Positions 11,952 through 64,000 of a stretch of DNA of 64,000 bases are shown piece by piece. Source of the DNA: a virus (taxonomy: Duplodnaviria > Caudoviricetes). Where the stretch lies: the IMG/VR virus record IMGVR_UViG_3300027974_001530; one strand, given 5' to 3'. Under the pieces are notes generated by a model. It saw only the letters and a list, made by a program, of their open reading frames with translations, had not been told where the DNA came from and searched no databases. Position 1 is the first letter of the stretch; every line of letters starts with the position of its first letter. The position numbers and the translations under genes are program-made.

Positions 11952-13793
11952 TCAAGAATATGTTACTGAAGATAAATTAACAACACTTACTCTAATATCT
12001 TTGTTTCCAAATCTAACTTGGTATATTTGCGTTGGGTCAGCAAAAATAGTGTCGGATATCAACTGAATTTCTTTTGTTGATTGATTAGAATATGGTTGTG
12101 ATGTTTGTGATGAAGAATACTGTCCCCCAACTTTGTTAAAGACCTGTATATCCGATATTGACAATACTCCGTTTTCCGCTTGTATTAGTCTTCTTAATTC
12201 AGAAATATTAACATTTTGACCTAATTGTCTTGACGTTGGTGACATATATGTAGATACAATATCTATGATTTTTGCAATTATAGATCCCTGACTTTGTGAA
12301 GAATCTAAAACCACCGCAATGTCAAACCCTAAGTCAATAACATTAGCACTTTCTACAGATATGTAATCATTTATCATTCTATAGTTTGATAAATAATTTG
12401 CAATATTAGTTTTTAATGCGTTTGGAACTACTGATGTAAGTGTCCCACTTGAGTCATAAGAAAGTAATTTTATTTTTATTTTGTTATTTTCCTCTACTAT
12501 CGACACTTTAGATGGTGCCCCAAATTGTGAAGGCATATTTCTTAATAATGAATCATAGTCATTAACCGTTACCGCTCTATTTTGTGATGAGAAGTTGAAA
12601 GAAACAAAATTTCTAATTTCCTCTAATGTTGGTGCTGCCGCTCCACCAACCGCAGCGATCGGGTTTGTACAACTTAATGAGTTTGACGTACTTGTATTAA
12701 GACTCTCAGAAGGACCGTTAACAAAGAAATTACTTTTCTGTACTTGAGTAATAACCCCAACACCGACATTACTTGATATTCCCCCACCAATTCTATACTG
12801 AATAAACAATGTTGAGTTTGATTTAAGTGTACTTCCTAAACCTAAATTATTAACGTATTTGTTTATGTTAATTGATTGTCCATTCCTTGCAAATTCCCTT
12901 AATTGTTCTTCCGCAGAATTATTACCACCACCAAAAGTTAATTTCATAAAACCTTGTGGGGTATATTCTGTAATAAATTTATCACTTGTTGTAATGTATC
13001 TACCGATTTTAATACCAGGAGCATCCGAAGGTTTTGTTGGGTCTTCAACAAAAACTCTGTCTTCAACTAAGGCCCTTACTTCATAAAATCTGTTATTAGG
13101 AGATAAAAAATCTTGATCTGAAGGTACGTTACTATATTGTGATCCGTCTTTTACAATGACACTAGTTACTCCCAACACATTTCTTTCAGGTAAAAATAAC
13201 TCAAAAAATGGTTTAACATCGTTAGGTGTTATAACTCTTTTAAAAACTTTAGTTAAACCATTAAGAACTACTTCTCTTTTGGTTACTGTGTAATTTTGTA
13301 TTGTACCATTTGAATCTATATTTGGTCTTACTATTCTTGAATTTGGTTGTCCTTCTCCATTATATTGAGATGAAAAATCTATATCATACACAGTTTCATA
13401 TGATTGACCTGCACCATTAACTTGAGTACCTCTTCTTAATATACCACAATATCTTATATCTTCCTTATCTCCAAACGCAGGTACAACAATAGAAAAATCA
13501 ACTAATGATATTGATGGTCTTTGTCCCGGTATTTTTAAACCGTATGTTCTTGCAATGTTAAATAATGAAGTCTTTTGTTGTGCGTATTGTAATACAGTCT
13601 CTTGTATACTTCTATCAATTTGAAAATTAAGGTTGTCGGCAACTGCGGCATTTAAATCCATTAAAACGGAAAATACCGAAGCATCATTAAAATTTTGTAT
13701 TAATTCAGGATAATAAGTTTTTACGTAATTAACTAATTCTGTTCTAACTCCTTGAAAATCCCTTGTTGTATATGATATTTTTTTATCTGCCAT
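11952..13793 (-). CDS. Baseplate wedge protein (T4 gp6 / P2 gpJ-like)
   Basis: N-terminal YTTRDFQGVRTELVNYVKTYYPE...DFNDAS-like motif and QNRAVTVNDY motif typical of gp6/J; directly downstream of gp25. Confidence 0.85.
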   Translation of the reverse strand: MADKKISYTTRDFQGVRTELVNYVKTYYPELIQNFNDASVFSVLMDLNAAVADNLNFQIDRSIQETVLQYAQQKTSLFNIARTYGLKIPGQRPSISLVDFSIVVPAFGDKEDIRYCGILRRGTQVNGAGQSYETVYDIDFSSQYNGEGQPNSRIVRPNIDSNGTIQNYTVTKREVVLNGLTKVFKRVITPNDVKPFFELFLPERNVLGVTSVIVKDGSQYSNVPSDQDFLSPNNRFYEVRALVEDRVFVEDPTKPSDAPGIKIGRYITTSDKFITEYTPQGFMKLTFGGGNNSAEEQLREFARNGQSININKYVNNLGLGSTLKSNSTLFIQYRIGGGISSNVGVGVITQVQKSNFFVNGPSESLNTSTSNSLSCTNPIAAVGGAAAPTLEEIRNFVSFNFSSQNRAVTVNDYDSLLRNMPSQFGAPSKVSIVEENNKIKIKLLSYDSSGTLTSVVPNALKTNIANYLSNYRMINDYISVESANVIDLGFDIAVVLDSSQSQGSIIAKIIDIVSTYMSPTSRQLGQNVNISELRRLIQAENGVLSISDIQVFNKVGGQYSSSQTSQPYSNQSTKEIQLISDTIFADPTQIYQVRFGNKDIRVSVVNLSSVTYS

Positions 13794-38818: not shown

Positions 38819-41800
38819 TCAAACATCTTCGAAAGAAGCTCCCGTTGGTGTTATAAAGAATGTAATATCTATGAACTCTAACGATCTTGTTGGTTTGATG
38901 TAAATTTTACCTGTCATTTGATTTCTATCTAAATCAGCAGTGTCACTTGAAACCGTTACTCTAAAGTCGTAAAGACCTCTGTCTCTTCTGATTCCGTCTA
39001 AAATAGGGTTAACCGCATTTAAGAAATCTTGTCTTACTTTTTCATCGTTTTGATCGAAAAGTAATCTAACTGAAACCGCAGATATTAATTTACGTGCTTG
39101 TAATAACAATCTTCTAACGTTGATTCTATCAAGGGCTGATTGTCTAACTTGTAAAGTTTTGTTACCCCATATTACCGTACCTACATCTGAGAAAGTTGCA
39201 ATTGGGTTAATTCTTCCAAGATATAAAACATCTCTATCTTCTTGAGTCAACTTCTTACGTGCTTTAATTGAGTTAACAATACCACGAGTGTAACCCGCCG
39301 CTGCGAACCAAGGGAACGCGATGTTATCAGTTAACGCCAAGTTTCTTGTTACTTCAGCGGTTGGTGGTAAATAAATTTGAGTATTATTTACACTATCACG
39401 AGTTAATACCCAAGGGTAATAAGTGGCCGTGTAGTTAGAGTCGATTCCCGTACCGTCAAGATTATCTACTGCCTCTTGTGGGTAAATTAATCCGTCAATA
39501 CCTGTTGTTGTTGGTAATAACAAATTGTAATCAGGTGTTGTTGTAATGTACAATGAATCCGCTCTATCATTCTCAACCATATCAATAGTGTCTTCAACAA
39601 GGTCACTATTATTTACATAATCAATACCAGGAGTTACGAATACGTTAATGTTAACCGCTTCAGGGTTAGCAAATGTTCTAATTCCTAACAAATATGCGTA
39701 ATAATCGGTATTTGCGTATTCTCTTGTTCCATCACCAACAGTGATTTGTTTGAACGCTCCCCAACCAATTGCGTTTGGATATCTTGTTGTAGCACAAGCT
39801 CCGTTAAGGTAACCTGTTCTACCTAATTGGTATTTGTCGGCGTTTGTTCTTCTTTCTCTGTAAATGTCCCAACCGTCAAATCCACCTTGTACTAATACTG
39901 TAAATTTACGAGCGAATAATCTATAGTATGGGTTTGTCTCAACTGTAGGTTCACTACTAAAGTCTGCCGCTCCTGCGTAGAACCTAGGAGTTCCACTTGT
40001 TGCAAATACATTTGCAATTGTGATACCACTTGCGTTTTTATCCATGTGGAAACCTCTTGTTCTATATAACCAAGGAGAAGATTCAGTGGCGAAACATATG
40101 TTGGACGGGTTTCTTTTTCCTTTGTATTCAAAGAAACTAGGATCGTATCCATAATCTGCACTTGTAGAAAATCCTAAGTAAGTTTTTCTAATATTATCTC
40201 CCGAAGAAAGTCCTGCATCATCAGTTCCTGATGGAGTACCAAACGGAGGATTAAATACTAATTCACCAGGGAAATCATATTTTGTTTTAATAATAGGGAA
40301 TGGAGATCTTGCTCCTGAATACTCTCTAAAATTGTATCCCTCAAAACCACAAGGTAAAGAATCAATAGGAGCATCCTCATTCATTTCTACCATTACGTAT
40401 CTTGACTTTAATTCGTATTCACCGTCTAACGTACCTATTTTTTTAGCTATAAAGTTATTTTCACTTGGGTTCATAGAACAGTTAGTAAATTTCTCAACAA
40501 CAACAGGGTTAGAATCTGTATCATAATAATCACGAACTAAAACCGTAAATGTTTCATTTGCAAATGAGATATCAGATATTGATACTTTAACTTCTGTATT
40601 TGCACTATTACCATCAGAAATTGTATAGAATTTAAATAGATTATAAACTTTAGAACCTCTTAATTCAGAAACAACCCATGGACTTTCAGGTGATTGATAT
40701 TTTTCTAAATACCATCCAATTGATGTTGGGTCTTCACTTTGTGCTTCAGGTAAAGATATTAAATCACATTTTAAACCTCTAATATAACCTTTATTGTATG
40801 CCCATCTTAATAATGATTGGAATCTTTCCTCAACAAATAAAGGAACTACGTTTCTTGGTTTACCAAAATTACTACCTCCAAACACTTTAGAAATATATTC
40901 GGAATCTGAATTAGAGAAAGAAGTTACAAAACTAAAATTATTACCAAGGTAATTTGTTGCGTTTATTACGAATTTTGCAAAAGGATTTTTAAGTACGTCA
41001 TCATATTGTCCTGTACAATCAATGTTAACATCTGTTAAACCTGTTATTTCAAATCTTGGATTAACATCATCACTATAGTCGGCAATACCTCTTGATCTTA
41101 AAGTTGCAACAACCATATCATCATACTCTGTATATGAATTACCACTATAAACATAAATCATACCCACAACGGTACCTGAATAACAATCTAAAACAGTTGT
41201 TGTAGTTGTAGTTGTTGGTACAACAGGTGTAGGGGTAACACAAGGATTTGGAGTTGGTGTTGGTATTGGTAATGTTGAAGTTGTTGTTGTAATAGGATTA
41301 ATTAAAGTTAAACCTGTAACTACATTCCAAAAAGAATAACCTGTATATAAACCATTTCCTGTATTTTCAAATAACGCATAATACCAAGGATCATTAAATG
41401 GTGATGTAAAATCAGTTAATGAACTTGATGGTGATGGAACATTAAACACGTTTGTAGATGCGGTATATCCTGTTGATAACACATCATAATCATCTCCGTC
41501 AATTGTACCAAAATATGCAATAGACGTATTTTCTGAAGGTGGGTTTAATATTCTTTGGTATGTGAAGAATTGTAAATCGTTTAACAATGTTGAGGTACTA
41601 CCATTAAATTGTTCATATTGATTAGTTAAAATATCTTCGATCTCATCAGGGAATAAACCAAATTCAACTGATGATGCACTGTTTGAACATCCCGTAAACG
41701 TTACTGTGAAAGGAATTGTTTTAGCCAATACACAAACAGGTTCACAAGAACCAGAAGGGGTAACTGCACTTAAACAATATGGTGTTAATGTTGCTGGATC

Positions 41801-42148
41801 TAAATTTGCACTTGTAATTATAGACCAAGATGGTCCTGCATCATATCCTGATAAACCTAATACTCTTGTAACAAACAATTGATTTGATTGTTGTAAGTAG
41901 GATTTAGCGATATAAGCCGCCTCATATTTTGGAATTTGTGTATTAACAAATTTTTCAGGTGTTGTACCACCAAAGTAGGATTGGAATTCGTCAAAGTTTT
42001 TTATAAAGATTGGTTCAAATGCTGGACCTTTTAAAGTTTCTCCGACAATCCCTAAAGTTGTAACACCAACACTCTGTGCCACAAAACTTAAATCTACTTC
42101 TGAAGTATAGACACCAGGTGAAACGAAAATTTTACTGTTAGTTGCCAT
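38819..42148 (-). CDS. Tail sheath protein (1109 aa)
   Basis: FVSPGVYTSEVDLS, GETLKGPAFEP, YPWV, NIAFPWFAAAGYTRG, RINPI, WGNKTLQ, DRINVRRLL, IYIKPTRSLEFI. Confidence 0.95.
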   Translation of the reverse strand: MATNSKIFVSPGVYTSEVDLSFVAQSVGVTTLGIVGETLKGPAFEPIFIKNFDEFQSYFGGTTPEKFVNTQIPKYEAAYIAKSYLQQSNQLFVTRVLGLSGYDAGPSWSIITSANLDPATLTPYCLSAVTPSGSCEPVCVLAKTIPFTVTFTGCSNSASSVEFGLFPDEIEDILTNQYEQFNGSTSTLLNDLQFFTYQRILNPPSENTSIAYFGTIDGDDYDVLSTGYTASTNVFNVPSPSSSLTDFTSPFNDPWYYALFENTGNGLYTGYSFWNVVTGLTLINPITTTTSTLPIPTPTPNPCVTPTPVVPTTTTTTTVLDCYSGTVVGMIYVYSGNSYTEYDDMVVATLRSRGIADYSDDVNPRFEITGLTDVNIDCTGQYDDVLKNPFAKFVINATNYLGNNFSFVTSFSNSDSEYISKVFGGSNFGKPRNVVPLFVEERFQSLLRWAYNKGYIRGLKCDLISLPEAQSEDPTSIGWYLEKYQSPESPWVVSELRGSKVYNLFKFYTISDGNSANTEVKVSISDISFANETFTVLVRDYYDTDSNPVVVEKFTNCSMNPSENNFIAKKIGTLDGEYELKSRYVMVEMNEDAPIDSLPCGFEGYNFREYSGARSPFPIIKTKYDFPGELVFNPPFGTPSGTDDAGLSSGDNIRKTYLGFSTSADYGYDPSFFEYKGKRNPSNICFATESSPWLYRTRGFHMDKNASGITIANVFATSGTPRFYAGAADFSSEPTVETNPYYRLFARKFTVLVQGGFDGWDIYRERRTNADKYQLGRTGYLNGACATTRYPNAIGWGAFKQITVGDGTREYANTDYYAYLLGIRTFANPEAVNINVFVTPGIDYVNNSDLVEDTIDMVENDRADSLYITTTPDYNLLLPTTTGIDGLIYPQEAVDNLDGTGIDSNYTATYYPWVLTRDSVNNTQIYLPPTAEVTRNLALTDNIAFPWFAAAGYTRGIVNSIKARKKLTQEDRDVLYLGRINPIATFSDVGTVIWGNKTLQVRQSALDRINVRRLLLQARKLISAVSVRLLFDQNDEKVRQDFLNAVNPILDGIRRDRGLYDFRVTVSSDTADLDRNQMTGKIYIKPTRSLEFIDITFFITPTGASFEDV

Positions 42149-42273
42149 ATTTTTTTAATATTAATTTATTATAATTTATTTTTATATATAAATACCGGTG
42201 TTTTCCGCAAAAACTTTACTTATATCAAACTATTTATATCTTGGTAAGATTTTTTTCTGCCTTTTTTCTACCT

Positions 42274-46719: not shown

Positions 46720-48846
46720 ATGAAAGTTACTTTTAAAAACATAGGGGCAAATATAGATGATAAGAAAAACGATCTATTAAAGAAGTTTTGTAAATTTTTA
46801 CAAAAAAATCACAAATTAAAAGAGGATATTACTATCCATCTTATGGGTGAAAAAATTGGCAGAATGACAACAGGTAGTCAACATAAAGAAAAGGGTATTA
46901 AGGTATTAATAAATAATAGAATGAATAGGGATATCTTAAGAACTTTGGCTCACGAATGGGTTCATTCATATCAAAGAAATGTTATTGGCAGAGATAGGGG
47001 ACCAGATATTGGAGGTCAAAATGAAGATGAAGCAAATTCATTGTCAGGATCTTTAGTTAAATCTTTTGAAAAAGAAAATCCTGATTTAGATAATATAATA
47101 TATGAAGGGTACGGTACAATCTATAAAAGAATTGATTTATTAAAAGAGGAAATTATTATCTACGATAAAGTTAATATAAAAAATAACTTTATTATGGAAA
47201 TGAAAAAGATTGGTATCGATAAATTACCTTATTCATATTCGGCAATAAAACAATTTGTTGATCCAAAAACTATGGATATCCACTATAATAAACATTATAA
47301 AGGATATGTAAAAAAACTTAATGATGCTTTATCTAAAAAAAAATATGGTGATTTAGAGTTAGAAGATATTATTAAATCAATTGGTAAATATGATGACACC
47401 ATAAGAAATAATGCCGGAGGTGCATTTAATCACGCATTATTTTGGAAAATGTTGTCTCCAAAGAAACAGGTCCCTAAAGGTGAGGTATTTGAAAAGATCA
47501 ACAAACAATACGGTAACATTAAAAAAATGAAAGATGAGTTTAATGATGTTGCAAAGAAAAGGTTTGGTTCTGGTTGGGTTTGGTTATTCTTAACAAAGAC
47601 AAATAGATTAAAAATTATGTCTACACCAAATCAAGATAATCCATTAATGAACGTTATAAAAGACGGTGGTTATCCACTACTTGGTCTTGATCTTTGGGAG
47701 CATTCGTATTATTTAAAATATCAAAATAAAAGGGATGAATACATTAAAAATTTTTGGAATAGTGTTAATTGGGAATTTGTTAATGAATTGTACTTAAGTA
47801 GGACAAAAAACATAAATGAGTCATTAACTGAGGATTCTATTTTATCTGAAGCTAAAGAGGTCTTCCCATTAACCTCAAAATCTTTTAGAGGTTTAATAAA
47901 CGATGCTTACCCTAAATGTGATGGTTTAAAACACACAAACGGTTGTTTAGGAAAAATTGAGACAGAACAATGTAAAACTGATGAAGGGATCATTGGTGGT
48001 AAATATACTGAGCAAAATTATGGAGGTATTGGTAATTGGTCTATTATAAATAGATTTGATACGAATAGTTCCGTACATAAAGAGATTCAAAAAATTTGGT
48101 CAGAGGAAACTAATTCCGTAGAAAATTTTAGAACATGGATTACAAATAACATGGGAGAACTGGTTGGGGATGAAGGAAGATTTACTGAAAGATTGGTGAA
48201 TCTAAACGTAAAAACAATAGTTGACGGTAGAGCAAATGAGAATTATGCAAAGTCAGTTTTAGTTACTTCATTTAAGTTAAATCCTGAAGAGGAAGGTCTT
48301 ACTTGGAATATTATAGAGAGGTGTGCTGGGGATGTTAGGGATAGAAAATTAGGTCAAGACTTTGATGTTGTTATTGATAATGTCTCATATTACATTCAGG
48401 TAAAGCCAATTGATTATAAAAAAATTGAAAAGATTGGGTCAGAGAGGGGATACTATTATAAGGTACCTTCTTGGCATTACCATTCTAAATATACTGAAAG
48501 TAACGTTGATGTTATTTTGTATGTTGATAGACCAAAAGAAAAATTTGTTATGTTTAGAAATGATTTTGCGAGAATTCAAACGGTTGCGAACCCAACAACA
48601 TTCCCTAAATTTTTTGTAATATATTACGAGAATCCTTTAAAAACAAATATGGATTTTGAGGTTATAGTCGAGCCTGATAAGGTAGAATCAAAACTTAAAC
48701 TTACAAGAGACACCCAAACAGAAATTGAGTACTATAGAGAAAGGATACAATATTATAAAGATAAATTACGTGAACTTGGCGATTCTGAAAATATAACTGA
48801 AATGATCAAGTATTACAATGAAGAGTTATATCAACTTATTAATTAA
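46720..48846 (+). CDS. Multidomain protein: HExxH metallopeptidase-like + Fe/Mn superoxide dismutase + PD-(D/E)xK nuclease-like (708 aa)
   Basis: LAHEWVH; SOD at about aa 159-360 with LPYSY, IHYNKH, GGAFNHALFW, FGSGWVWL, NQDNP, DLWEHSYY; C-terminal DFDVVID...YIQVKP. Confidence 0.8.
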   Translation: MKVTFKNIGANIDDKKNDLLKKFCKFLQKNHKLKEDITIHLMGEKIGRMTTGSQHKEKGIKVLINNRMNRDILRTLAHEWVHSYQRNVIGRDRGPDIGGQNEDEANSLSGSLVKSFEKENPDLDNIIYEGYGTIYKRIDLLKEEIIIYDKVNIKNNFIMEMKKIGIDKLPYSYSAIKQFVDPKTMDIHYNKHYKGYVKKLNDALSKKKYGDLELEDIIKSIGKYDDTIRNNAGGAFNHALFWKMLSPKKQVPKGEVFEKINKQYGNIKKMKDEFNDVAKKRFGSGWVWLFLTKTNRLKIMSTPNQDNPLMNVIKDGGYPLLGLDLWEHSYYLKYQNKRDEYIKNFWNSVNWEFVNELYLSRTKNINESLTEDSILSEAKEVFPLTSKSFRGLINDAYPKCDGLKHTNGCLGKIETEQCKTDEGIIGGKYTEQNYGGIGNWSIINRFDTNSSVHKEIQKIWSEETNSVENFRTWITNNMGELVGDEGRFTERLVNLNVKTIVDGRANENYAKSVLVTSFKLNPEEEGLTWNIIERCAGDVRDRKLGQDFDVVIDNVSYYIQVKPIDYKKIEKIGSERGYYYKVPSWHYHSKYTESNVDVILYVDRPKEKFVMFRNDFARIQTVANPTTFPKFFVIYYENPLKTNMDFEVIVEPDKVESKLKLTRDTQTEIEYYRERIQYYKDKLRELGDSENITEMIKYYNEELYQLIN

Positions 48847-50004: not shown

Positions 50005-50345
50005 CAAATACACCACAAAGAAAAAATGTTATTAAATATCAAACGTCTATTGATCCACCAAAAGAACAAGACAAGTCGTTAATCATTTCTAAAGATAAGT
50101 ACACCACAAACGATGAAACCCTCTTAATAGTAAGAGGAGTTCCAAATTCTGAGGTAACTTTAAATTCTACGGTTACAAAAAGAATTGTTGTTAAATCATT
50201 AACTTCAGTTTTAGTAAAACCTGATATGGGTATGATAGATGAAGAGTGGGATGAATTACTTTTAGAAAAAGGATCTTGCGTCCAATTCCAATTTGTTCAA
50301 GGTAATTGGTATATCTTATCTTCAGATGGTTTAAAAATATCTTAA
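50001..50345 (+). CDS. Small beta-rich protein (114 aa), probably structural
   Basis: Coupled to the neck gene (ATGA overlap); ends GSCVQFQFVQGNWYILSSDG. Confidence 0.6.
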   Translation: MTNTPQRKNVIKYQTSIDPPKEQDKSLIISKDKYTTNDETLLIVRGVPNSEVTLNSTVTKRIVVKSLTSVLVKPDMGMIDEEWDELLLEKGSCVQFQFVQGNWYILSSDGLKIS

Positions 50346-53275
50346 ACCAATTCTTCCCATCCAGGTTCTGCCAATTCATACATATAGTTAGGGTCAATAC
50401 CAACCTTTTCCCAAAACTCTATTTCACCATCTTCCAGTTTAATTAAATGTTCTTCAATATCATCTTGGTCCTTTTCTTCAAACGGAACACCATTAATTAA
50501 CTCACATTGTGTTTTTGTAAAGAACCCTCTTTCTTCAGGATTCTTAACTAATAATCCATCTCTCACTTCTTCTTTAAAAACTATTAATAAAGGTTCGACC
50601 CTTTTATTAAATGTTGCAATCGCCCTTTGGATATTGTATTCCCCTAACATATCAGGATTATTTTCAATGTCTGATGGGTTTAACATGTATGAGTTTAACT
50701 GGACAACAGAATCTGTTGTAGCAAGTTTATATGCCATATCTGTTGGTATTCCGGTATTTGCTTCTTTATTTTTAGAATTACTACGTACCCAATTATCTTC
50801 AGACCAAGATTTTTCCCAACCATTATTAAGTAGTAAAGTTTCCTTTTCTTTATAAGATACTTTAGATTTTGTAGAATCAGAGTAAAATAAATTTATCTGA
50901 TCATCATTCCAACCGGCCTTTGGTTTATTAACTTTCTGAACATCTCCGTGTGAGGCCTTAGTTCCGTTATTTACGTAGTAGATTATATCTCCCAAATTTA
51001 CATTAAGATTGTCACGTATTGCAAGTTCCATATGAGCCTGTCTTGACATAAGTGATCCGGCTTTAGTTGTTTGTTTACTTCGTTTAATGTAATCATCAAT
51101 TGATTGTTTTATTCTTGATTTAGACGCAATTTGCATTAATGGAATTTTTTGATCGAATATCTTTTGTACGTATTCATAATAGTATTCCACAAAAGATTGA
51201 CCATCCCCCTCTAAAAGTTGTCTTATCCCCTTATCTAAGAAAACCTCAATATATTTTGGCATTTTTTTAGATTTGATTGAATTACCCGTTAATTTAATTT
51301 TACCATTATGTTCCATAGTTGCGTAGTTCTTACGTGCTAAGTTTATACAAGAGTCCCACGTACCATCACAATCAAGACCCATTTCACCTTTCATGAATGT
51401 ATCATTAAATTCTGCAACATCAGCATTATAACCTCTATATTCTTCACCTACTTTAACCAACCAATTTAATCCTTTACCGATATAAACTTTATGATCCACA
51501 CCACCTTTAGGTAATGAAAAGTTCATACCGTCCGTATCGCATACAAGTGGGGTATATCCTCTTTTAACAAAGAACTTTAACATCTGACGAAGATATTGTC
51601 TTCCTGTACAAGTGATCTGTTCGCCCATATTTATATCCCCCCACGGGAATACTTGAGGTGCCGATAAGGAACCAAAGAATGCATTAATAAAAATCTTAAT
51701 TGGTAATTGTTTTCTATCGAATGACAATGATTTCTTTTTATCAATACCCTTATATTCCGAAGCCAAATTCTTATACATAATACGAGAATTACGGAAAAAT
51801 GTTAATAAACCTTTCATCGCCCCCGTAATATCACATTCAGGGAATACATCGTGTACCAACTGAATAGACGGATATAGTGATGAGTAGTCAAGTTTTAACA
51901 CGTCTTTTGAATAACCCACTTTAAGTAATCGTGATAACCCACCGACAAATCTTCTTTGTTCTTCTTTTTTAGGAATTGCCAAACCAAACTTATATGACCA
52001 AGCAAGCATTATCATTTTCCATAATGTTGCGGTTCCCATTGTTGAGACCCTTTCATATGTTGTTGGGACTAAAGACGCAAGTAGGAAAGTTCCTTGATTG
52101 AACTCGTCATCCACTATCAAGGTTTCCTCAAGGTCATCGTCAAGATAACGCTCAACTATATCGTCCCCAGTTGTTTTTATATAAATGTCTCCTCGTCTAA
52201 AACAAACCTCATCAATTTTAGAATCAACACCAACTTTCTTATATTTACCATTTTCAGTGTTTAACCAATACTCGTCTTTTTCAGCGTACATAGGACCAAT
52301 CTTTGTGTGGTCAATATATATACGATCTTTAGCCTCACCATCTATAAATTTGGTAATGTACTTCAATCCCGCCTCTTTAATATTTGAATTGATTGCTTGA
52401 GCTCTACGAACAGAGTGGATAATATCAATCACATTATATCCCCACAACTGAACCTGATTAAATTTCTCAACCTCATTTGCCAATTTTAACATTGATTCCT
52501 TTTGGGATATTGTTCTTTTTGGGTTAAGGGACTTTGCTATTTTTTTAATATCAAGATTTAAAGCCTTACATCTTTCGAATATCCAAAACCAGTCAAAATT
52601 TGCTGAATTGTATCCTGAAATAATTGATGGTTTAAGTTCGTCTATTGTTCTGAAGAACTCAACAAGACCACTTCTTTCATCATCTTCATCTTTACATTCA
52701 ATAACTTTTAGGAATCCTTTATTGGTTTTCATTCCAATCATAAAGATACGACCGTCTTTTGGTTCTAATGCGGTTGTCTCAAGGTCAAATCCAAATCTAG
52801 TGATATCATTATATTCCTCAAATCCTTTGAACAATCTTTTTTCTTTTGAGATGAGGTACTGTTCGACAGGGGGTAACATTAAAAATTTATTTTTTGTATT
52901 TTCACCCCAAGGATCAATACCTCCATCACGAAAAAATTGTGTTAGAGATCGATAACCTTTCATTGACTTAACCATAAATGTTAGACCATTTTCTAATCTT
53001 TCATTTCCATCAGTTCTTAATTTGTCTATTACAATTCCGTACTTAGACATCGCCTCTTTTTGTAGTGCTTTAGATCCTTGATAAAAGTTTAATCCTTTTA
53101 GGTCTCCTACCCAAGCAAATGCAATTAAACTATCTCTTACAATAGATTTTCCTTTTCCCGGTATTTCTTTGATTTTATAAATATGGTCCGACACGTAGTC
53201 AAACTCAATTGCAACGATGTGCTCTTCCGAATCATTTCCTTCTAGAAATGACTTAATTTCTTCTTGTGATATCAT
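50342..53275 (-). CDS. Family B DNA polymerase with 3'-5' exonuclease
   Basis: ExoI DLETT, ExoII GYNSANFD, ExoIII YLDDD, motif A DYSSLYPS, motif B KIFINAFFG, motif C CDTDG. Confidence 0.95.
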   Translation of the reverse strand: MISQEEIKSFLEGNDSEEHIVAIEFDYVSDHIYKIKEIPGKGKSIVRDSLIAFAWVGDLKGLNFYQGSKALQKEAMSKYGIVIDKLRTDGNERLENGLTFMVKSMKGYRSLTQFFRDGGIDPWGENTKNKFLMLPPVEQYLISKEKRLFKGFEEYNDITRFGFDLETTALEPKDGRIFMIGMKTNKGFLKVIECKDEDDERSGLVEFFRTIDELKPSIISGYNSANFDWFWIFERCKALNLDIKKIAKSLNPKRTISQKESMLKLANEVEKFNQVQLWGYNVIDIIHSVRRAQAINSNIKEAGLKYITKFIDGEAKDRIYIDHTKIGPMYAEKDEYWLNTENGKYKKVGVDSKIDEVCFRRGDIYIKTTGDDIVERYLDDDLEETLIVDDEFNQGTFLLASLVPTTYERVSTMGTATLWKMIMLAWSYKFGLAIPKKEEQRRFVGGLSRLLKVGYSKDVLKLDYSSLYPSIQLVHDVFPECDITGAMKGLLTFFRNSRIMYKNLASEYKGIDKKKSLSFDRKQLPIKIFINAFFGSLSAPQVFPWGDINMGEQITCTGRQYLRQMLKFFVKRGYTPLVCDTDGMNFSLPKGGVDHKVYIGKGLNWLVKVGEEYRGYNADVAEFNDTFMKGEMGLDCDGTWDSCINLARKNYATMEHNGKIKLTGNSIKSKKMPKYIEVFLDKGIRQLLEGDGQSFVEYYYEYVQKIFDQKIPLMQIASKSRIKQSIDDYIKRSKQTTKAGSLMSRQAHMELAIRDNLNVNLGDIIYYVNNGTKASHGDVQKVNKPKAGWNDDQINLFYSDSTKSKVSYKEKETLLLNNGWEKSWSEDNWVRSNSKNKEANTGIPTDMAYKLATTDSVVQLNSYMLNPSDIENNPDMLGEYNIQRAIATFNKRVEPLLIVFKEEVRDGLLVKNPEERGFFTKTQCELINGVPFEEKDQDDIEEHLIKLEDGEIEFWEKVGIDPNYMYELAEPGWEELV

Positions 53276-57784: not shown

Positions 57785-58411
57785 TTACTTTTGAAAATAT
57801 TTTGATATACGTTGACTTAATCTTACTCTTGGATCATTTTTATCTCTATTTAAAATTTCATAAGGTAATAAGAATCCAAAACTTAAAAACACTCTTCTTG
57901 AGTTAAACTCTTCGGTCCAATGTTTATATAAAGAAGCCTCAAAACAGTATAGGTCTTTTTGTTCTATGACAGGTGAAGAATCGCCTATAAAAATTTTGTA
58001 ATCTTCTGATAACACACTAATGTTACACTTATAGTTTATGTAACCATCAAGTGACGCATCATAGTGGGGTTGTACTCTACCACCTTTTTTCATATCAACC
58101 GCCTGAATAAAGATATTATCAAGTGGTAGGTTATTCTTTTCAGATATCCTTTTAAAAATAGTTTTGATAATTTGGGGAACTTCTTGTTGTAAAACTTTAG
58201 AAACTGATTGAAAATTTGTAATGTAGTTTGTAAGTTCGGTATTTGAGATGTCTATAATACAAGATTTTCCCTTCAGTGTTTTTGAGATTTCACTTAAGTG
58301 GTAATTCGGATCTCCATCTTCAGGATTTAACGAATCAACCCAATCAACAATTAGATTAACCTCATCATCACTGATGAAATTTTTTATTATTTTATGATTT
58401 TCAGATTCCAT
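57785..58411 (-). CDS. 2OG-Fe(II) oxygenase-like protein
   Basis: HYD...KHW...RRVFLS gives the HxD...H triad plus the 2OG-binding Arg of the double-stranded beta-helix fold. Confidence 0.7.
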   Translation of the reverse strand: MESENHKIIKNFISDDEVNLIVDWVDSLNPEDGDPNYHLSEISKTLKGKSCIIDISNTELTNYITNFQSVSKVLQQEVPQIIKTIFKRISEKNNLPLDNIFIQAVDMKKGGRVQPHYDASLDGYINYKCNISVLSEDYKIFIGDSSPVIEQKDLYCFEASLYKHWTEEFNSRRVFLSFGFLLPYEILNRDKNDPRVRLSQRISKYFQK

Positions 58412-58635
58412 TTATTAAGAAATTCTTTTGGACCAATTTCTAATTCCATAATAGATAAGTTTTTCTTATCGTAAATAGAGTTCATTTTTTCCTCAGATCC
58501 CGCCATTGTACAAAACCAATGTGTTGCAGGTTCTTCTCCTGTTGATGAACAAGGTATTTTCATCACATTTTTATTTACCCAAGCTTCTCTTACTTGTTCT
58601 ACCTTATCGTTTTCTGTTAAAATATTTATTCTCAT
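58387..58635 (-). CDS. Hypothetical protein (82 aa)
   Basis: ATG ORF overlapping the oxygenase start by 25 nt. Confidence 0.55.
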   Translation of the reverse strand: MRINILTENDKVEQVREAWVNKNVMKIPCSSTGEEPATHWFCTMAGSEEKMNSIYDKKNLSIMELEIGPKEFLNKWNLKIIK

Positions 58636-58924: not shown

Positions 58925-60286
58925 TTAATTAAAAAAATTGAACACTAATCCTTGCCAATTGTGATAGGTTTGGTCAGAGCCTGGGTCTGAAGTTACTCTA
59001 ATACCACCTACTGAGGTAATGTTTTCAAATGTCACATCAATATTACCAGGGAAGTATAAATCTGCACTATCATTAGCATCGTAATTTTGATTATATAACG
59101 TATATGACCATACTGTAACCCAATCTTCAATTGAGTTGTCATATAAATCTATTGTGAGGTCTGAGGATTCGTACTCCTCGTGAACGTGTGCGGTCGCAAT
59201 ACCACATTTACTTGTTGTAAGCCTAATTACATTTAGAATTGGTGGAAATTCAATATTGTAATCGTTAAAATCGGTATCTCCACCATACGTTGACCAATTA
59301 ATTGAAATTAATGGTGTATCTTCCTGAGTAATAATAGAATTAAGTTTAATTTCAATAGGTGTATAGTATAAGGAATCACCTACAAAATCTTCATTTGCAA
59401 AGTCATATACTGTTAAAAATACACTATCCTCTGTTGGCCCCAAAAAGGAACCAATTCCTGATGATACAATTAAGTTAAATTGTGGTGGTTCATAAAAATA
59501 ATTAAAAGGAGTGATAAATGATGGTGTAGTTATTTGAGTTTTATTTCTTTGGAAACTATTACATAGATTATAATTTCCGTTGATAACGTCACTAAAAACT
59601 GCAAAATACAAACCTTGTTGAAAAAACTCTCCTCCATAAACCCATACTAACTCATCACCAAGAGTATTTTCTAAAACATCAACAACTAAACCACCATTGG
59701 ATGTTAATTCAGAGTTACCCCAAATTATTGGAGTGTCTCCTGTAGCAATAAAAACACAACCTGTTACGTTAGGATTATTAACCTCAGTAACTGTGATTAT
59801 TATATCGTTTGCGGGGGTACTACCACTAACAAAATCAGTTCCTAATATTGTTATTGTATCTCCTACTACGTAACCATCCCCACTCGTTGCAATAGTAATG
59901 TTATTAAGTGTTGTCCCACACCAATAACCATCAAAAGATACCCCAACACCCAAACCACTTGTTGTTCCTGTAACACCATTAAATGTTTCGTAACCCTCTG
60001 GTGAAGTCCAAACATAATCAAAATTAAAAGACCCTCCACTAATTATATTTGCAACATTACTAAAATCATCGTAATCTTGGTAATCTGTGATTTCGTACGT
60101 TTCTCCAATTATTAAACGATAATTAAAGTCACCGATATTACCACTAATAGAACCTGTTTGAGTTAATAATGCTCTATATGTTCCACTATTATTTGATGAC
60201 CCCGTAACGCTTAAATTCCCATTAATTGTTATATCACCATTTATGGTTTGTCCCGATAAGTTATCTACTATGTATTTTGTTGCCAT
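58925..60286 (-). CDS. Modular fibre/decoration protein (453 aa)
   Basis: MATKYIVDNL start; YRALLTQ...VLENTLG domain with nested insertions; extra C-terminal beta domain. Confidence 0.6.
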   Translation of the reverse strand: MATKYIVDNLSGQTINGDITINGNLSVTGSSNNSGTYRALLTQTGSISGNIGDFNYRLIIGETYEITDYQDYDDFSNVANIISGGSFNFDYVWTSPEGYETFNGVTGTTSGLGVGVSFDGYWCGTTLNNITIATSGDGYVVGDTITILGTDFVSGSTPANDIIITVTEVNNPNVTGCVFIATGDTPIIWGNSELTSNGGLVVDVLENTLGDELVWVYGGEFFQQGLYFAVFSDVINGNYNLCNSFQRNKTQITTPSFITPFNYFYEPPQFNLIVSSGIGSFLGPTEDSVFLTVYDFANEDFVGDSLYYTPIEIKLNSIITQEDTPLISINWSTYGGDTDFNDYNIEFPPILNVIRLTTSKCGIATAHVHEEYESSDLTIDLYDNSIEDWVTVWSYTLYNQNYDANDSADLYFPGNIDVTFENITSVGGIRVTSDPGSDQTYHNWQGLVFNFFN

Positions 60287-60872
60287 TTTATTCTTATTAA
60301 TTATATACTCTTATTTCTAGTGATGTGGATTGTAAATTATTATAATAACTACCAGTAGCATCAAATTGAAATAAATATATTTCTTCAGAATTACCAATTT
60401 GAGTTGTTATCCAATATGGGTCTGATGGCCTAGAAGAGGTTGTGGTAAAAGTTATAGTTTTGCCTATAAGAAATAAACTATCACTATATATATTGTAAGT
60501 GCCAGCATTATTATAAGTAAACCAAATATTACCAATAGTGTTTTCTAATACAGTTGCTACTGGAGCTCCTGTGTTGTAGTTTAAACCCTCAACACCTACC
60601 CAACTGTTAGGTTCTTCACTTGCAGTTGCAACAAATGTATATGTATCAGGATAAACTGGTCCCCCTACATTACTAAAGTCCCAACTTCCAGTAGGTAAAT
60701 ATCCACCAAGTTGGTATGTCACACCAACAGTTACCGAACCACTTGACATAGTTTGTGGATCATTCCCACCACTCTGTGTTAATAGTGCAGTATATACTTT
60801 ATATGGTTGTAATTGTTGATCATTTATAGTTTGACCCGGTAAGTTATCTACTATGTATTTTGTTGCCATTTT
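60257..60872. repeat. 33-bp identical direct repeat at the 5' ends of two adjacent paralogues
   Basis: TAAGTTATCTACTATGTATTTTGTTGCCATTTT at 60257-60289 and 60840-60872. Confidence 0.85.
60297..60869 (-). CDS. Modular fibre/decoration protein (190 aa), paralogue of 58925-60286
   Basis: MATKYIVDNLPGQTIN; KVYTALLTQSG...APVATVLENTIGNIWFTY. Confidence 0.6.
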   Translation of the reverse strand: MATKYIVDNLPGQTINDQQLQPYKVYTALLTQSGGNDPQTMSSGSVTVGVTYQLGGYLPTGSWDFSNVGGPVYPDTYTFVATASEEPNSWVGVEGLNYNTGAPVATVLENTIGNIWFTYNNAGTYNIYSDSLFLIGKTITFTTTSSRPSDPYWITTQIGNSEEIYLFQFDATGSYYNNLQSTSLEIRVYN

Positions 60873-60889: not shown

Positions 60890-61966
60890 TTAGTCAATAG
60901 GTAATCCAGCCATATAATCAACCGTTATATTACTCCACCCAATACCAAATTCATATTTCATAACTTTATCAACAACAACATATGATTCAAATTGTGTTGT
61001 ACCGGAACTAACATCAGAATTAATAAAAATACCACTTAAAAAATATACATCATTTGTGGTATTAGCGGTTGTTGCTGCTGGTAAATTTGCAATAATATAA
61101 TCATAAGCAGAATCCCTGATAGTTTCTGTGGCAAATATCATTTGTTTATTATAAACCTCTTCAGTAGTTCCTGTGAATCCACTTAAAGTAGATTTAAATG
61201 GCCATAAAATATCCGTCAATTTCCAAAAAGAATAATTTTCATTATTAAAAGGTGCGTTATTTTGATCTGGTGCTGAACTTAGTTGATTTACAACTTGGTC
61301 AATTGCACCCGCAACAGCACCACAGGTATTATCAGTTAAACTATTTGCTTTACCTCTTCTTAACATTCTACCTGAACGCCCATCTTCAGTAACACCAATG
61401 TGTGGCATACTTGTTACAAACAAGGTTCCACCAAGATCAGTTGCTACGTGACTTGCAAATGCCCCAAAACCAACACTACCAACAAACGGATAACCTGCTA
61501 GTCCTCCTGATTGAAATGGACCTAAGAAAGAATTAATACTTGTTGGCCATCCACCGATATTTCCGGGTAAATATGCCGCATCAACGTCATCAGAACAAAT
61601 ACCTTCAGCTAAAACAATATCAGTTGATGGTATTCCTTCATTTGTAACATATTCTGTTGTATATGTTCCCCATACTTCAGATAATACGGCTCCTGAAAAT
61701 GGTTGGTATCCTCCGTCAACGGTAACAGTTCTTACTGTTTCAGTATATGCGCTCTGACCTGTTAATGGTGCTGGTACAATTATTTCATATATTCTATCAT
61801 ATAATGGAACGTCTAATTCGTATGTTCCATAAGGATAATCCGAAATATTGTTAAATGGTATTACTTCAGGACCTAAATCAACTGTTCCACCAGTTGTGGG
61901 TAAAAAAGTAACGTTTGCCGTTAGTCCTGATAAATTTGTGCTTGTTATTCTAATTCCTTGTATCAT
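60890..61966 (-). CDS. Theta-class (LCIB/LCIC-type) carbonic anhydrase fused to an N-terminal beta-rich domain (358 aa)
   Basis: ICSDD (C124), GGLAGYPFVGSVGFGAFASHV, PHIGV (H189), GRMLRRG, TCGAVAGA (C215), FLSGIFIN match the LCIB/theta-CA motif order and the Cys-His-Cys Zn ligands. Confidence 0.8.
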   Translation of the reverse strand: MIQGIRITSTNLSGLTANVTFLPTTGGTVDLGPEVIPFNNISDYPYGTYELDVPLYDRIYEIIVPAPLTGQSAYTETVRTVTVDGGYQPFSGAVLSEVWGTYTTEYVTNEGIPSTDIVLAEGICSDDVDAAYLPGNIGGWPTSINSFLGPFQSGGLAGYPFVGSVGFGAFASHVATDLGGTLFVTSMPHIGVTEDGRSGRMLRRGKANSLTDNTCGAVAGAIDQVVNQLSSAPDQNNAPFNNENYSFWKLTDILWPFKSTLSGFTGTTEEVYNKQMIFATETIRDSAYDYIIANLPAATTANTTNDVYFLSGIFINSDVSSGTTQFESYVVVDKVMKYEFGIGWSNITVDYMAGLPID

Positions 61967-61994
61967 TTTTTTGTTTTTTTTATTTTTTATTTAT

Positions 61995-64000
61995 TTATAA
62001 TATTAATCCGAAATTCAAATCATTTTCTGGTATGTCTAATGCGTTTAACCCACCTAGACAAGGAGCCTCAGTTAATGTTTCTATTGTTAAAACATCTAAT
62101 TCATCGTAATATGATAATCTGTTATCACCATTTTTATTTTTAAATACATTAACTGTTGTGATATCATATAACATACCTGTACTTAAACAAACATTATTAA
62201 CTTCAGTATTAACAATATTCCATTGGAATGAATCGCCAATTGTGTTATTGTAAAAGTTATCAGGAATAATATTATTGTAAAAATATTCACCGATGGTATT
62301 ATCTATAAAATTATTTCCAATTCTATTTCCTTGAGCGTTTGATCCCCCAAAACCAAATCCATCTTGTACCTCATTAGAATTGAAATAAGTTCCTATTGTG
62401 TTGTATGAGAATGAACCATAACAAATATTAAATGAAAAATTATCACCAATATTGTTATGTATTGTGATACCACTAAAAATATTAGGTGAACACCCAAATC
62501 CTATATTATTATATCCAAACTCACCTAATATCTCATTAGCTTTAAAATCTGTTTTAAGTTGATTACTCCAAAAATTACCTTGAATGTCATTACCCTTAAA
62601 ATTATTCATAATTTGGTTGTTCTCAAAAGTAAGACCTAAATTATCAACATCCCCAATTGTGTTTGTGTTAAAACCATTTAATATTGAATTTTTTATAAAA
62701 ACACAATATATGTCATTATTGTAAAAATCGTTTAAAATATTGTTACTTAAAAAATTAAATTTAATTGTATTACTTTCAAAATAGGTCCCAATTATATTAC
62801 CCCTAAAATCAGTACCCCCAATATTTAAATTGTTTCCAATAGTATTATTATAAAAATTGAATCCAATATTATTTTCGTAGAACTCTGAATATACCGTATT
62901 ACCATTATATCCATTATCAATTAAATTACGACGAAATTCGGAATAACTTTGATTACCATTATATCCATTACCAATATCATTATTATAGAAATAATTATAA
63001 ATTTTATTGTTTTGAAACTGATTTCCTATTTCATTATTTTGAAAATCATTGTCAGTCCAAACATTATTATTAAAATCATTTCCAATATTGTTTCTATAAA
63101 AAGACCCACCTAGTAAAGTGTTACTATAAAAATCACTACCAATTCTATTATTATAGAAATTAGATGTGATGTAATTGTTATTAAACCCTTCTCCAATTAT
63201 ATTCCCATCAAAGTCGTCATTCGTTGAGTTGTTATAAAAACTGTCACCTATTTGATTATTATCGCAATCATCATTAAATGTGTTATTATATGAATTATCA
63301 CCAATTGTGTTATTTATGTATGACCCTGAAATAAATACATTGTTTGCCAAAATAAATGGGTTGTCCTCATACCACGTATATACATTTGAGTAGTTACCAA
63401 CATAGTTGTTAATAGAAAACTGATAATTATCAATGGGATCACCAAATGTTGTGTATTCGTAAACTTGGTCTTGTTTTATGTTAGGTTGATAATAACTCAT
63501 AATACCATCGTCAGATGCTGAATAATAAAGTGAACTATTAGTTTGACTTATTGTTACACCTGATATAATTGCTAAAGAATTACTTACAACAGATATAACT
63601 TCAAAAAATGAAGGATTTAAATTTTGTATTGAAACAATTGACCCAGTTGAGAAATTTGAGGTAAATGTTGTACCTGTGTTACCATATAACACGGCAGTTG
63701 TTCCTGTTAAACCGCTTATCCCAACAAGACCACTTAATGGTTGATTTTCGTAATATGAATAACCACGATATCTTTTAAATAAAATACTTCTGTTATCATA
63801 ATCAGTTCTATTATTAAAGTTATCAATTCTTTCAGTGATTCTACCTTTTGCAGGACTACTCGTGATTTCAGTGGTATTCCAAGTTATGTCGTATGTTATT
63901 TTGTCTTGAGGGTATAATGTAGAATATACGGTAGGTGAAAACCCTGTTGTAGATATCGCCAATAATAAAATTGGTTCTGTTGTTCCTGTTTTATAGTTAC
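61995..64000 (-). CDS. Fibre/spike-like protein with Asn-rich repeats, 5' end outside the window; paralogue of 53971-57765
   Basis: The frame stays open past the TTG at 63962 to the window edge (NYKTGTTEPILLLAIS...), aligning with ENYKQGPVEPIVVLATS of the paralogue; shares GRITERIDxFNNRTDYD. Confidence 0.75.
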   Translation of the reverse strand, partial: NYKTGTTEPILLLAISTTGFSPTVYSTLYPQDKITYDITWNTTEITSSPAKGRITERIDNFNNRTDYDNRSILFKRYRGYSYYENQPLSGLVGISGLTGTTAVLYGNTGTTFTSNFSTGSIVSIQNLNPSFFEVISVVSNSLAIISGVTISQTNSSLYYSASDDGIMSYYQPNIKQDQVYEYTTFGDPIDNYQFSINNYVGNYSNVYTWYEDNPFILANNVFISGSYINNTIGDNSYNNTFNDDCDNNQIGDSFYNNSTNDDFDGNIIGEGFNNNYITSNFYNNRIGSDFYSNTLLGGSFYRNNIGNDFNNNVWTDNDFQNNEIGNQFQNNKIYNYFYNNDIGNGYNGNQSYSEFRRNLIDNGYNGNTVYSEFYENNIGFNFYNNTIGNNLNIGGTDFRGNIIGTYFESNTIKFNFLSNNILNDFYNNDIYCVFIKNSILNGFNTNTIGDVDNLGLTFENNQIMNNFKGNDIQGNFWSNQLKTDFKANEILGEFGYNNIGFGCSPNIFSGITIHNNIGDNFSFNICYGSFSYNTIGTYFNSNEVQDGFGFGGSNAQGNRIGNNFIDNTIGEYFYNNIIPDNFYNNTIGDSFQWNIVNTEVNNVCLSTGMLYDITTVNVFKNKNGDNRLSYYDELDVLTIETLTEAPCLGGLNALDIPENDLNFGLIL

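Follow-up and report, generated by a model that had tools for sequence, protein, structure and literature searches.

The 64,000-nucleotide stretch of DNA analyzed here, from an uncultured freshwater phage (Duplodnaviria; Caudoviricetes; IMG/VR record IMGVR_UViG_3300027974_001530), referred to below as the window, carries at 60890..61966 an open reading frame (ORF) of 358 codons plus a stop, in which a small N-terminal module is fused to a carbonic anhydrase domain of the LCIB/theta type. The preliminary description of this DNA had already placed the gene here but gave no strand; the ORF list and the translation show an intact ORF on the minus strand. The catalytic domain, described by structure superposition, Foldseek, and a predicted homodimer, occupies residues 67–358 (60893..61768, minus). 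It is preceded by the module, residues 1–66 (61769..61966, minus), which is modeled as a six-stranded β-sandwich and recurs in other phage proteins.

A profile search with the translated protein revealed a match to the Pfam family LCIB_C_CA (PF18599) spanning residues 103–333 and profile positions 11–217 of 223, with a score of 102.1 bits (cut-off 25) and an E-value of 3.4e-29; on the genome record, the same match reached 103 bits. This result substantiates the LCIB/theta-type motifs that the preliminary description had read from the translation. By phmmer against the sequences of the Protein Data Bank (PDB), the protein also matched 6kfs (9.7e-14) and PtLCIB4 of Phaeodactylum tricornutum (5b5y; 8.6e-11). 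An AlphaFold model built from a 74-row alignment attained a predicted local distance difference test score (pLDDT) of 90.9 and a predicted TM-score (pTM) of 0.84, and was used throughout; a single-sequence model with a pLDDT of 29 was discarded. Superposing the model on the LCIB structures, a comparison that the preliminary description had proposed, placed residues 74–349 on PtLCIB4 (5b5y_A) with a VIA-align Z of 26.3 and a root-mean-square deviation (rmsd) of 2.2 Å over 233 of 237 residues, followed by Chlamydomonas LCIB (CrLCIB; Z 20.6) and, more distantly, by ordinary β-carbonic anhydrases (Z 10–12.6). Foldseek agreed on the LCIB fold (E 3e-15; TM 0.78–0.83, normalized to the target). We therefore identify the domain, with high confidence, as an LCIB-type (theta) carbonic anhydrase.

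The predicted zinc site of this domain is conserved. The three ligands that had been proposed from the sequence, together with the Asp that follows the first Cys, all found their counterparts in PtLCIB4, whose residue numbers are given as in its paper (chain index minus 15). Cys124 (codon 61595..61597, minus), in the motif C-S-D-D-V that also holds Asp126, corresponds to Cys46 and was retained in 58 of the 58 distinct viral copies covering it; His189 (61400..61402, minus), in P-H-I-G-V, corresponds to His102, and Cys215 (61322..61324, minus), in T-C-G-A, to Cys126, both being present in all 62 distinct viral copies. The HMMER alignment additionally paired S125 with Ser47, D126 with Asp48, and H173 with His88. 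Beyond the ligands, the set C124, D126, H173, H189, R203, and C215 was invariant across 22 orthologues and 34 diverse homologues, and the same six residues were found in every covering copy among the 62. Position 125 was occupied by Ser in 54 and by Ala in 4 of the 58 copies, and never by Arg. Pairwise comparison of the 22 orthologous genes yielded a ratio of nonsynonymous to synonymous substitution rates (dN/dS) of ~0.2, in the N-terminal module and in the enzyme domain alike.

The protein was also predicted to form a homodimer, with a score of 0.47 where the best control scored 0.00. Of solved homo-pairs, 21 of 30 attain the mark applied here, against none of 23 single chains. The contacts agreed between runs to at least 18%, and the pLDDT of the partner was 67 or more; since solved LCIB dimers exist, the pass may reflect no more than likeness to them. 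In the predicted interface, D126 of one chain stands against H173 and R203 of the other, with the pairs 126–173 and 203–173 both formed across chains. Together, the family match, the fold, the conserved active site, the dN/dS, and the predicted dimer support a functional zinc carbonic anhydrase. Fold and zinc site are no guarantee of activity, as Chlamydomonas LCIB and LCIC have both and are inactive in vitro (review PMC5876011); the conservation pattern and the model nevertheless indicate that the phage protein is likely to be catalytically competent.

Among characterized proteins, the diatom enzymes PtLCIB4 and PtLCIB3 (5b5y) and 6kfs belong to the same Pfam family and share the fold; in structural terms, the LCIB (theta) enzymes are a subgroup of the β-carbonic anhydrases. 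The phage protein resembles PtLCIB4 in the Cys-His-Cys ligands, the Asp, the His88 equivalent, the Arg, the Ser after the first Cys, and the predicted placement of the active site across the interface; it differs from PtLCIB4 and 6kfs in being phage-encoded, in sharing only 22–23% identity with them, and in falling into a separate viral group in the tree described below. Chlamydomonas LCIB and LCIC (5k5w, 5b5x) share family and fold as well, at a greater distance than PtLCIB4 (phmmer E 0.11), and carry an Arg at the position of PtLCIB4 Ser47, where the phage protein has Ser125; we take this Arg to mark the inactive form. LCIB/theta carbonic anhydrases are parts of the CO2-concentrating mechanisms of algae and diatoms and occur in a few bacteria, and unlike the algal and diatom members, the phage protein has no known link to such a mechanism. 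The nearest cellular sequences are the stand-alone LCIB proteins of ~230 amino acids (aa) in Bacteroidota (Prolixibacteraceae, Bacteroidales, Chitinophagaceae) and Balneolaceae, which contain the same domain with the motif variant GGL(A/G)GYP(F/H)(V/T)G but have no N-terminal module. The 66-residue β-sandwich of the phage protein is absent from the algal, diatom, and bacterial members alike.

The preliminary description had taken the first ~65 residues to be unrelated to the enzyme and rich in β-structure, and had suggested searching them alone to see whether they head other proteins; both ideas proved sound. In the model (pLDDT 90.9), this segment folds as a separate domain with six strands at residues 3–7, 16–23, 29–35, 38–42, 47–53, and 58–64. 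Its structural likeness is to generic β-sandwiches, namely C-terminal domains of the type IX secretion system (T9SS), fibronectin type III (FN3), and immunoglobulin (Ig)-like domains, at Z 5.4–6.3. The likeness to the T9SS C-terminal sorting domain (Z ~6) was considered as a functional clue and dismissed, given that the fold is common and the module is not at the end where such a sorting domain belongs. No match to the module was found in Pfam or PHROGs, none of use in the ESM-Atlas (residues 1–70), and nothing below E 0.46 in a profile search of PDB sequences; a word-indexed search with residues 1–90 returned orthologues only. By exhaustive phmmer, on the other hand, residues 2–75 were recovered at the extreme N-terminus (starting at residue 2–5) of many proteins of 83–829 aa. 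Compared over 72 residues, the module is 49–64% identical to the N-terminal parts of 29 proteins that carry other cargoes, and 38% identical to that of a distant enzyme fusion (P0128).

Most of the module carriers continue with Pro/Thr-rich linkers followed by Cys-containing domains, which are features of exposed, fibre-like proteins, and one carries a DUF5122 propeller; searching ten carriers against PHROGs gave matches only to families of unknown function. The module thus heads a multigene family of Pro/Thr-stalked proteins, and the adaptor-module family is real. A second copy was not found in the 92 kb of this phage, its paralogues being confined to relatives. One of these (G002; 272 kb, 91% complete) has six module-headed genes, namely the enzyme gene, a gene for a 356-aa protein, and a row of four (803, 744, 69, and 1040 aa) located between the large terminase and portal genes. 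Of the indirect evidence tying the module to the virion, this gene order is the strongest. In two further loci (L002 and L003), the order runs from a 1351-aa and an 802-aa protein through the enzyme to proteins of 88 and 206 aa, an 87-aa stand-alone module, a 279-aa protein, and a module with a Pro/Thr stalk. In three others (L004, L005, and L162), a module-headed protein of 691 or 829 aa replaces the enzyme in the syntenic slot behind the conserved block of L002 and L003. Module genes adjoin the enzyme gene in eight IMG/VR loci, and the fusion of module and enzyme is retained across identity tiers of 78–95%, ~52%, and 45–48%.

Homologues of the gene are widespread among viruses. A word search of metagenomic data returned 232, the best 120 of which are 77–95% identical and lie on contigs of up to 320 kb, and at least 139 viral contigs of IMG/VR carry LCIB relatives. 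The preliminary description had stated that these enzymes were not known as phage genes, which holds for the literature searched, where no report linking LCIB or theta-carbonic anhydrases to phages was found, but not for the IMG/VR contigs. The enzyme had no tblastn match in 50,697 GenBank phage records and no match in PHROGs, and BFVD returned no LCIB-like viral structure at E < 1e-3, its matches being β-carbonic anhydrases of the giant viruses Harvfovirus and Pandoravirus. Viral α-, β-, and γ-carbonic anhydrases have been described on contigs from a freshwater sponge and read as auxiliary genes (10.64898/2026.01.21.700432). The enzyme studied here differs from those of the sponge-associated and giant viruses in its LCIB/theta class, and an adaptor fusion appears in none of those reports.

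Viral LCIB genes occur in unrelated phage types and in several architectures (single proteins of 308, 315, 374, 399, or 776 aa, and 401- and 285-aa proteins in tandem), most having N-terminal extensions of their own, three of which show a 'KPY...PGSL' motif. In one case (L008), the gene follows a crAss-type major capsid gene at a distance of 2.5 kb; the 401- and 285-aa pair is adjacent in two loci (L007 and L087), and the 776-aa form (L049 and L051) has a C-terminal extension of ~390 aa. One viral LCIB contig also carries dCMP deaminase, RNA ligase, and lysozyme genes. A maximum-likelihood tree united 22 viral representatives with the metagenomic sequences closest to them in one group, separated by a branch of length 0.83 with 100/100 support from 64 cellular sequences, mostly Bacteroidota, which are 24–37% identical to the viral protein. 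The cellular set was gathered with one peptide pattern and is biased to the GYP type, with cyanobacterial and algal members outside the sample; within this pattern-limited sample, the phylogeny that the preliminary description had proposed for identifying a donor yielded no close cellular homologue and named no donor. On the same sample, the picture is not that of an auxiliary gene recently acquired from a host, as the nearest cellular sequences are only 24–37% identical, the viral copies group together, and the GC content of the gene is phage-like. As a separate observation, one contig labeled as part of a bacterial metagenome-assembled genome (L090; JBAXKR010000165.1, 1571 bp) carries an LCIB gene that falls inside the viral group beside phage forms of 315–319 aa, and its placement suggests that it is probably a phage fragment binned with the bacterium.

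Sequencing runs containing the enzyme gene came from 20 studies, nearly all labeled as freshwater or lake water. In six metatranscriptome libraries, contigs cover the enzyme gene and its neighbors; DNA carry-over may account for them, and they are no proof of transcription, of its timing, or of co-transcription, nor does a gap in their coverage carry any meaning.

Because this phage group also places the module on long fibre-like proteins, the enzyme is probably carried on the particle. According to the reading we favor, the gene product would be a zinc-dependent LCIB (theta, β-like) carbonic anhydrase acting as a homodimer, and its 66-residue β-sandwich would be an adaptor, the same as that on the long Pro/Thr-stalked fibre-like proteins of this phage group. 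The module would dock its cargo on a conserved virion site, probably on the head, whereby particles would bear the enzyme beside Pro/Thr fibres in an arrangement resembling the Hoc decoration of T4, here with an enzyme displayed. On contact with the host cell or on entry, the enzyme would then interconvert CO2 and bicarbonate at or in that cell. That the enzyme attaches to the virion, where it would act, and what the phage would gain are inferred, and we give roughly even chances to the proposal that the module docks an active dimeric carbonic anhydrase on the virion. Tentatively, the arrangement may amount to a natural 'phage display', in which one module docks interchangeable cargoes on a single virion site (long glycosylated Pro/Thr stalks, β-propellers, carbonic anhydrase) whose genes are swapped as cassettes.

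The known systems closest to this proposal are T4 Hoc and similar decoration proteins of phages, in which a conserved domain that binds the capsid is joined to variable Ig-like domains (PMC10385173). The likeness lies in one conserved small domain with variable distal parts, in the Ig/FN3-like β-sandwich, and in the position of the G002 paralogues in the head-gene region. As to differences, no sequence homology or specific structural homology to Hoc was found, and the anchor of Hoc is C-terminal whereas the module is N-terminal. Additionally, the module might anchor the protein or be the part on display, and its cargo is an enzyme.

Several observations weigh against a virion-tethered enzyme. 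Its gene lies outside any recognized structural block, flanked in the simplest arrangement among relatives by glycosyltransferase genes and by that for the DNA polymerase, and no Pro/Thr stalk separates the module from the enzyme, unlike in most carriers. The module shows no sequence link to known capsid- or tail-binding domains, and its fold is generic at Z ~6. Other viral LCIB genes have no module, and some of them stand among nucleotide-metabolism genes (L007), which fits an intracellular role. Furthermore, on physical grounds, a few dozen enzyme molecules per free particle could hardly be expected to shift the chemistry of bulk water, and the TATTTAT motif found before the gene (see below) is not limited to structural genes.

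The main alternative is a soluble, cytoplasmic auxiliary enzyme, which would accelerate CO2/bicarbonate exchange during replication of a ~290-kb genome and thereby feed carbamoyl-phosphate synthetase, purine carboxylation, acetyl-CoA carboxylase, and anaplerosis, with the module serving as a general protein-protein interaction domain and not as a virion anchor; were the host cyanobacterial, it could instead dissipate the host bicarbonate pool. A complete active site under purifying selection is what such an enzyme should have, and the genomic setting is compatible with it: some of the module-free viral LCIB genes lie beside dCMP deaminase, HNH, and RNA ligase genes, the enzyme gene abuts the DNA polymerase gene in many relatives, and nucleotide metabolism is well represented among the genes of this phage group, by a ribonucleotide reductase in the window and by dUTPase/dCTP deaminase in relatives. 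The lake metatranscriptome contigs over the gene can be counted on the same side, subject to DNA carry-over. Left unexplained, however, are the retention down to 45% identity of a fusion with a module that also heads proteins of the terminase–portal cluster and the replacement of the gene at the same slot by fibre-like module carriers. That most other viral LCIB proteins also have some N-terminal extension likewise weighs against this alternative. On balance, we consider a purely cytoplasmic role possible but doubtful.

The evidence for virion association would serve equally well for an effector that is packaged in the particle and delivered with the DNA into the periplasm or cytoplasm, re-equilibrating the inorganic-carbon pool within seconds to minutes; given the high turnover of carbonic anhydrases, a few molecules would suffice. 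The Pro/Thr-stalked relatives of the module nonetheless resemble external fibres and not internal cargo, no protease-site or ejection-protein features were found, and an ejected carbonic anhydrase has no known precedent, which makes this version very improbable. Another possibility is that the fold was co-opted and no longer hydrates CO2, acting as an adhesin or scaffold, or as an enzyme for carbonyl sulfide (COS) or CS2 like other hydrolases of the β-carbonic anhydrase fold. COS hydrolase (3vrk) and CS2 hydrolase (3ten) are indeed structural neighbors at Z 7.1–7.5. A precedent for co-option exists in the vaccinia envelope protein D8, whose α-carbonic anhydrase-like fold binds chondroitin sulfate. 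The inactivity of Chlamydomonas LCIB and LCIC in vitro (PMC5876011) likewise shows that family members may lack the reaction. Against this stand the invariance of D126, H173, and R203 in the viral clade, the agreement of S125 with PtLCIB4 Ser47 (the structure of the PtLCIB4 S47R mutant has been solved), and the structural comparison, in which the active diatom enzyme is well ahead of all other matches. The scaffold-only alternative raised in the preliminary description is accordingly disfavored, since catalytic residues other than the ligands are invariant and dN/dS is ~0.2, and co-option in general appears unlikely.

These results point to a large viral branch of the LCIB family, spread over several unrelated phage types and lakes worldwide and conserving the active site throughout. 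From this wide spread and conservation, fast interconversion of CO2 and bicarbonate seems to have served phages for a long time and under selection. To our knowledge, virion-borne activities have so far been mostly depolymerases and lysins; a virion-borne carbonic anhydrase would extend them to central inorganic-carbon chemistry. If the display proposal is true, an enzyme of inorganic-carbon metabolism would for the first time be known as a virion component, acting on the CO2/bicarbonate pool of the host at infection, and a modular docking system of this kind might be of use for phage display. As a cytoplasmic auxiliary gene, it would instead add a new enzyme class to the viral manipulation of lake carbon flow.

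Turning to the gene-neighborhood, the upstream neighbor (61995..64000, minus) encodes at least 667 aa and runs off the window. It is Asn-rich (18%), with an 18-residue repeat in which the motif spacing is 18 residues in 9 of 16 cases, and a solenoid or fibre-like structure is probable; its homologues in relatives (467–857 aa, 39–94% identity) likewise lie directly upstream of the enzyme gene. Downstream (58925..60869, minus), two paralogues of 190 aa (60297-60869) and 453 aa (58925-60286) are related at a BLASTP E of 6e-8 and have the N-terminus MATKYIVDNL.GQTIN in common; among close relatives, they behave as variable cassette genes, present in some and absent from others. None of these three neighbors matched a Pfam or PHROG family, and the 453-aa protein had no tblastn match in GenBank phages, so that a 'fibre/decoration' label for them is presumptive. 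The location 'inside the fibre cluster' given in the preliminary description consequently stands in part, for there are downstream paralogues and a repeat-rich upstream gene, but these neighbors carry no annotation and the arrangement is mosaic.

Across relatives, the locus varies; at its simplest, the enzyme gene has a glycosyltransferase block on one side and the DNA polymerase gene on the other. The upstream block comprises a PF11397 GlcNAc-transferase, a GT2 glycosyltransferase, and an HtrL_YibB protein (L037:1999-7023). In most close relatives, the enzyme gene is followed by genes for two companion proteins, which in the window are an 82-aa protein (58387-58635, minus) and a 208-aa protein (57785-58411, minus). 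The latter has no Pfam match over threshold; its ESM-Atlas features point to 2OG-FeII_Oxy and Asp/Arg hydroxylase clusters at 0.93–0.95, which is a lead only. The co-occurrence of this hydroxylase-like protein with glycosyltransferases and Pro/Thr-stalked proteins suggests a phage-encoded system for both hydroxylation and O-glycosylation of virion fibres.

The enzyme gene is preceded by an A-rich intergenic leader of 28 nt (61967..61999, minus), which has no Shine-Dalgarno sequence and holds TATTATAAATA, a form one base shorter of the motif TATTTAT(A/T)AA. This motif is found ~12–50 nt before many starts in the window (e.g., at 42194, 57782, 36266, 34217, 11901, and 48855), upstream of the tail sheath gene and of many other genes, structural and non-structural; in 15 of 32 related loci, the orthologous enzyme gene has the full TATTTAT motif upstream. 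The leaders of the window are likewise A-rich and free of Shine-Dalgarno sequences. Its distribution makes it a candidate phage promoter, an assignment that is indecisive; its reverse complement includes the T4-late-like TATAAATA. Together with the leader, a terminal stretch of ~19 codons in the upstream gene (window 61995-62055, ending in ...DIPENDLNFGLIL) is conserved though the rest of that gene differs, and in one locus (L024) the junction persists despite an unrelated upstream gene for a 203-aa Pro/Thr- and Cys-rich protein. From its conservation, this junction looks like a fixed recombination site for cassette exchange.

The phage identity of the window is established by genes for a tail sheath (38819-42148, minus; 1109 aa), a baseplate wedge protein (11952-13793), a family-B DNA polymerase (50342-53275), a DnaB-like helicase, ribonucleotide reductase, a UvsX-like recombinase, and a single-stranded DNA-binding protein (SSB). 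The IMG/VR record with this phage measures 91 kb at an estimated CheckV completeness of 31%, which implies a genome of jumbo size. The final 1191 bases of the window (62810-64000) extend past the end of the matching record and point to a longer assembly. GC content is 31.4% in the phage and 35.3% in the enzyme gene, a value similar to those of its other conserved genes. With regard to the host, no tRNA genes were found in the window, and the DNA polymerase shares only 23–24% identity with its counterparts in Salinibacter and Nostocales phages. The low GC content (31%), the leaders without Shine-Dalgarno sequences, and Bacteroidota as the nearest cellular source of LCIB are weak hints; the leaders faintly suggest a host that does not use such sites, for example, among Bacteroidota or cyanobacteria.

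Two further proteins of this phage have unusual architectures. In the 1109-aa tail sheath protein, the sheath-family match is confined to the last ~280 residues, with large N-terminal and central insertions, and its nearest relatives, at 32–35% identity, are in a 484-kb uncultured phage and the Microcystis phage Mel-JY01. A 708-aa protein (46720-48846, plus) contains a complete Fe/Mn superoxide dismutase (PF00081 and PF02777, residues 166–356) flanked by a 165-aa N-terminal and a 350-aa C-terminal part, so that this phage encodes two metalloenzymes to which further domains are joined.

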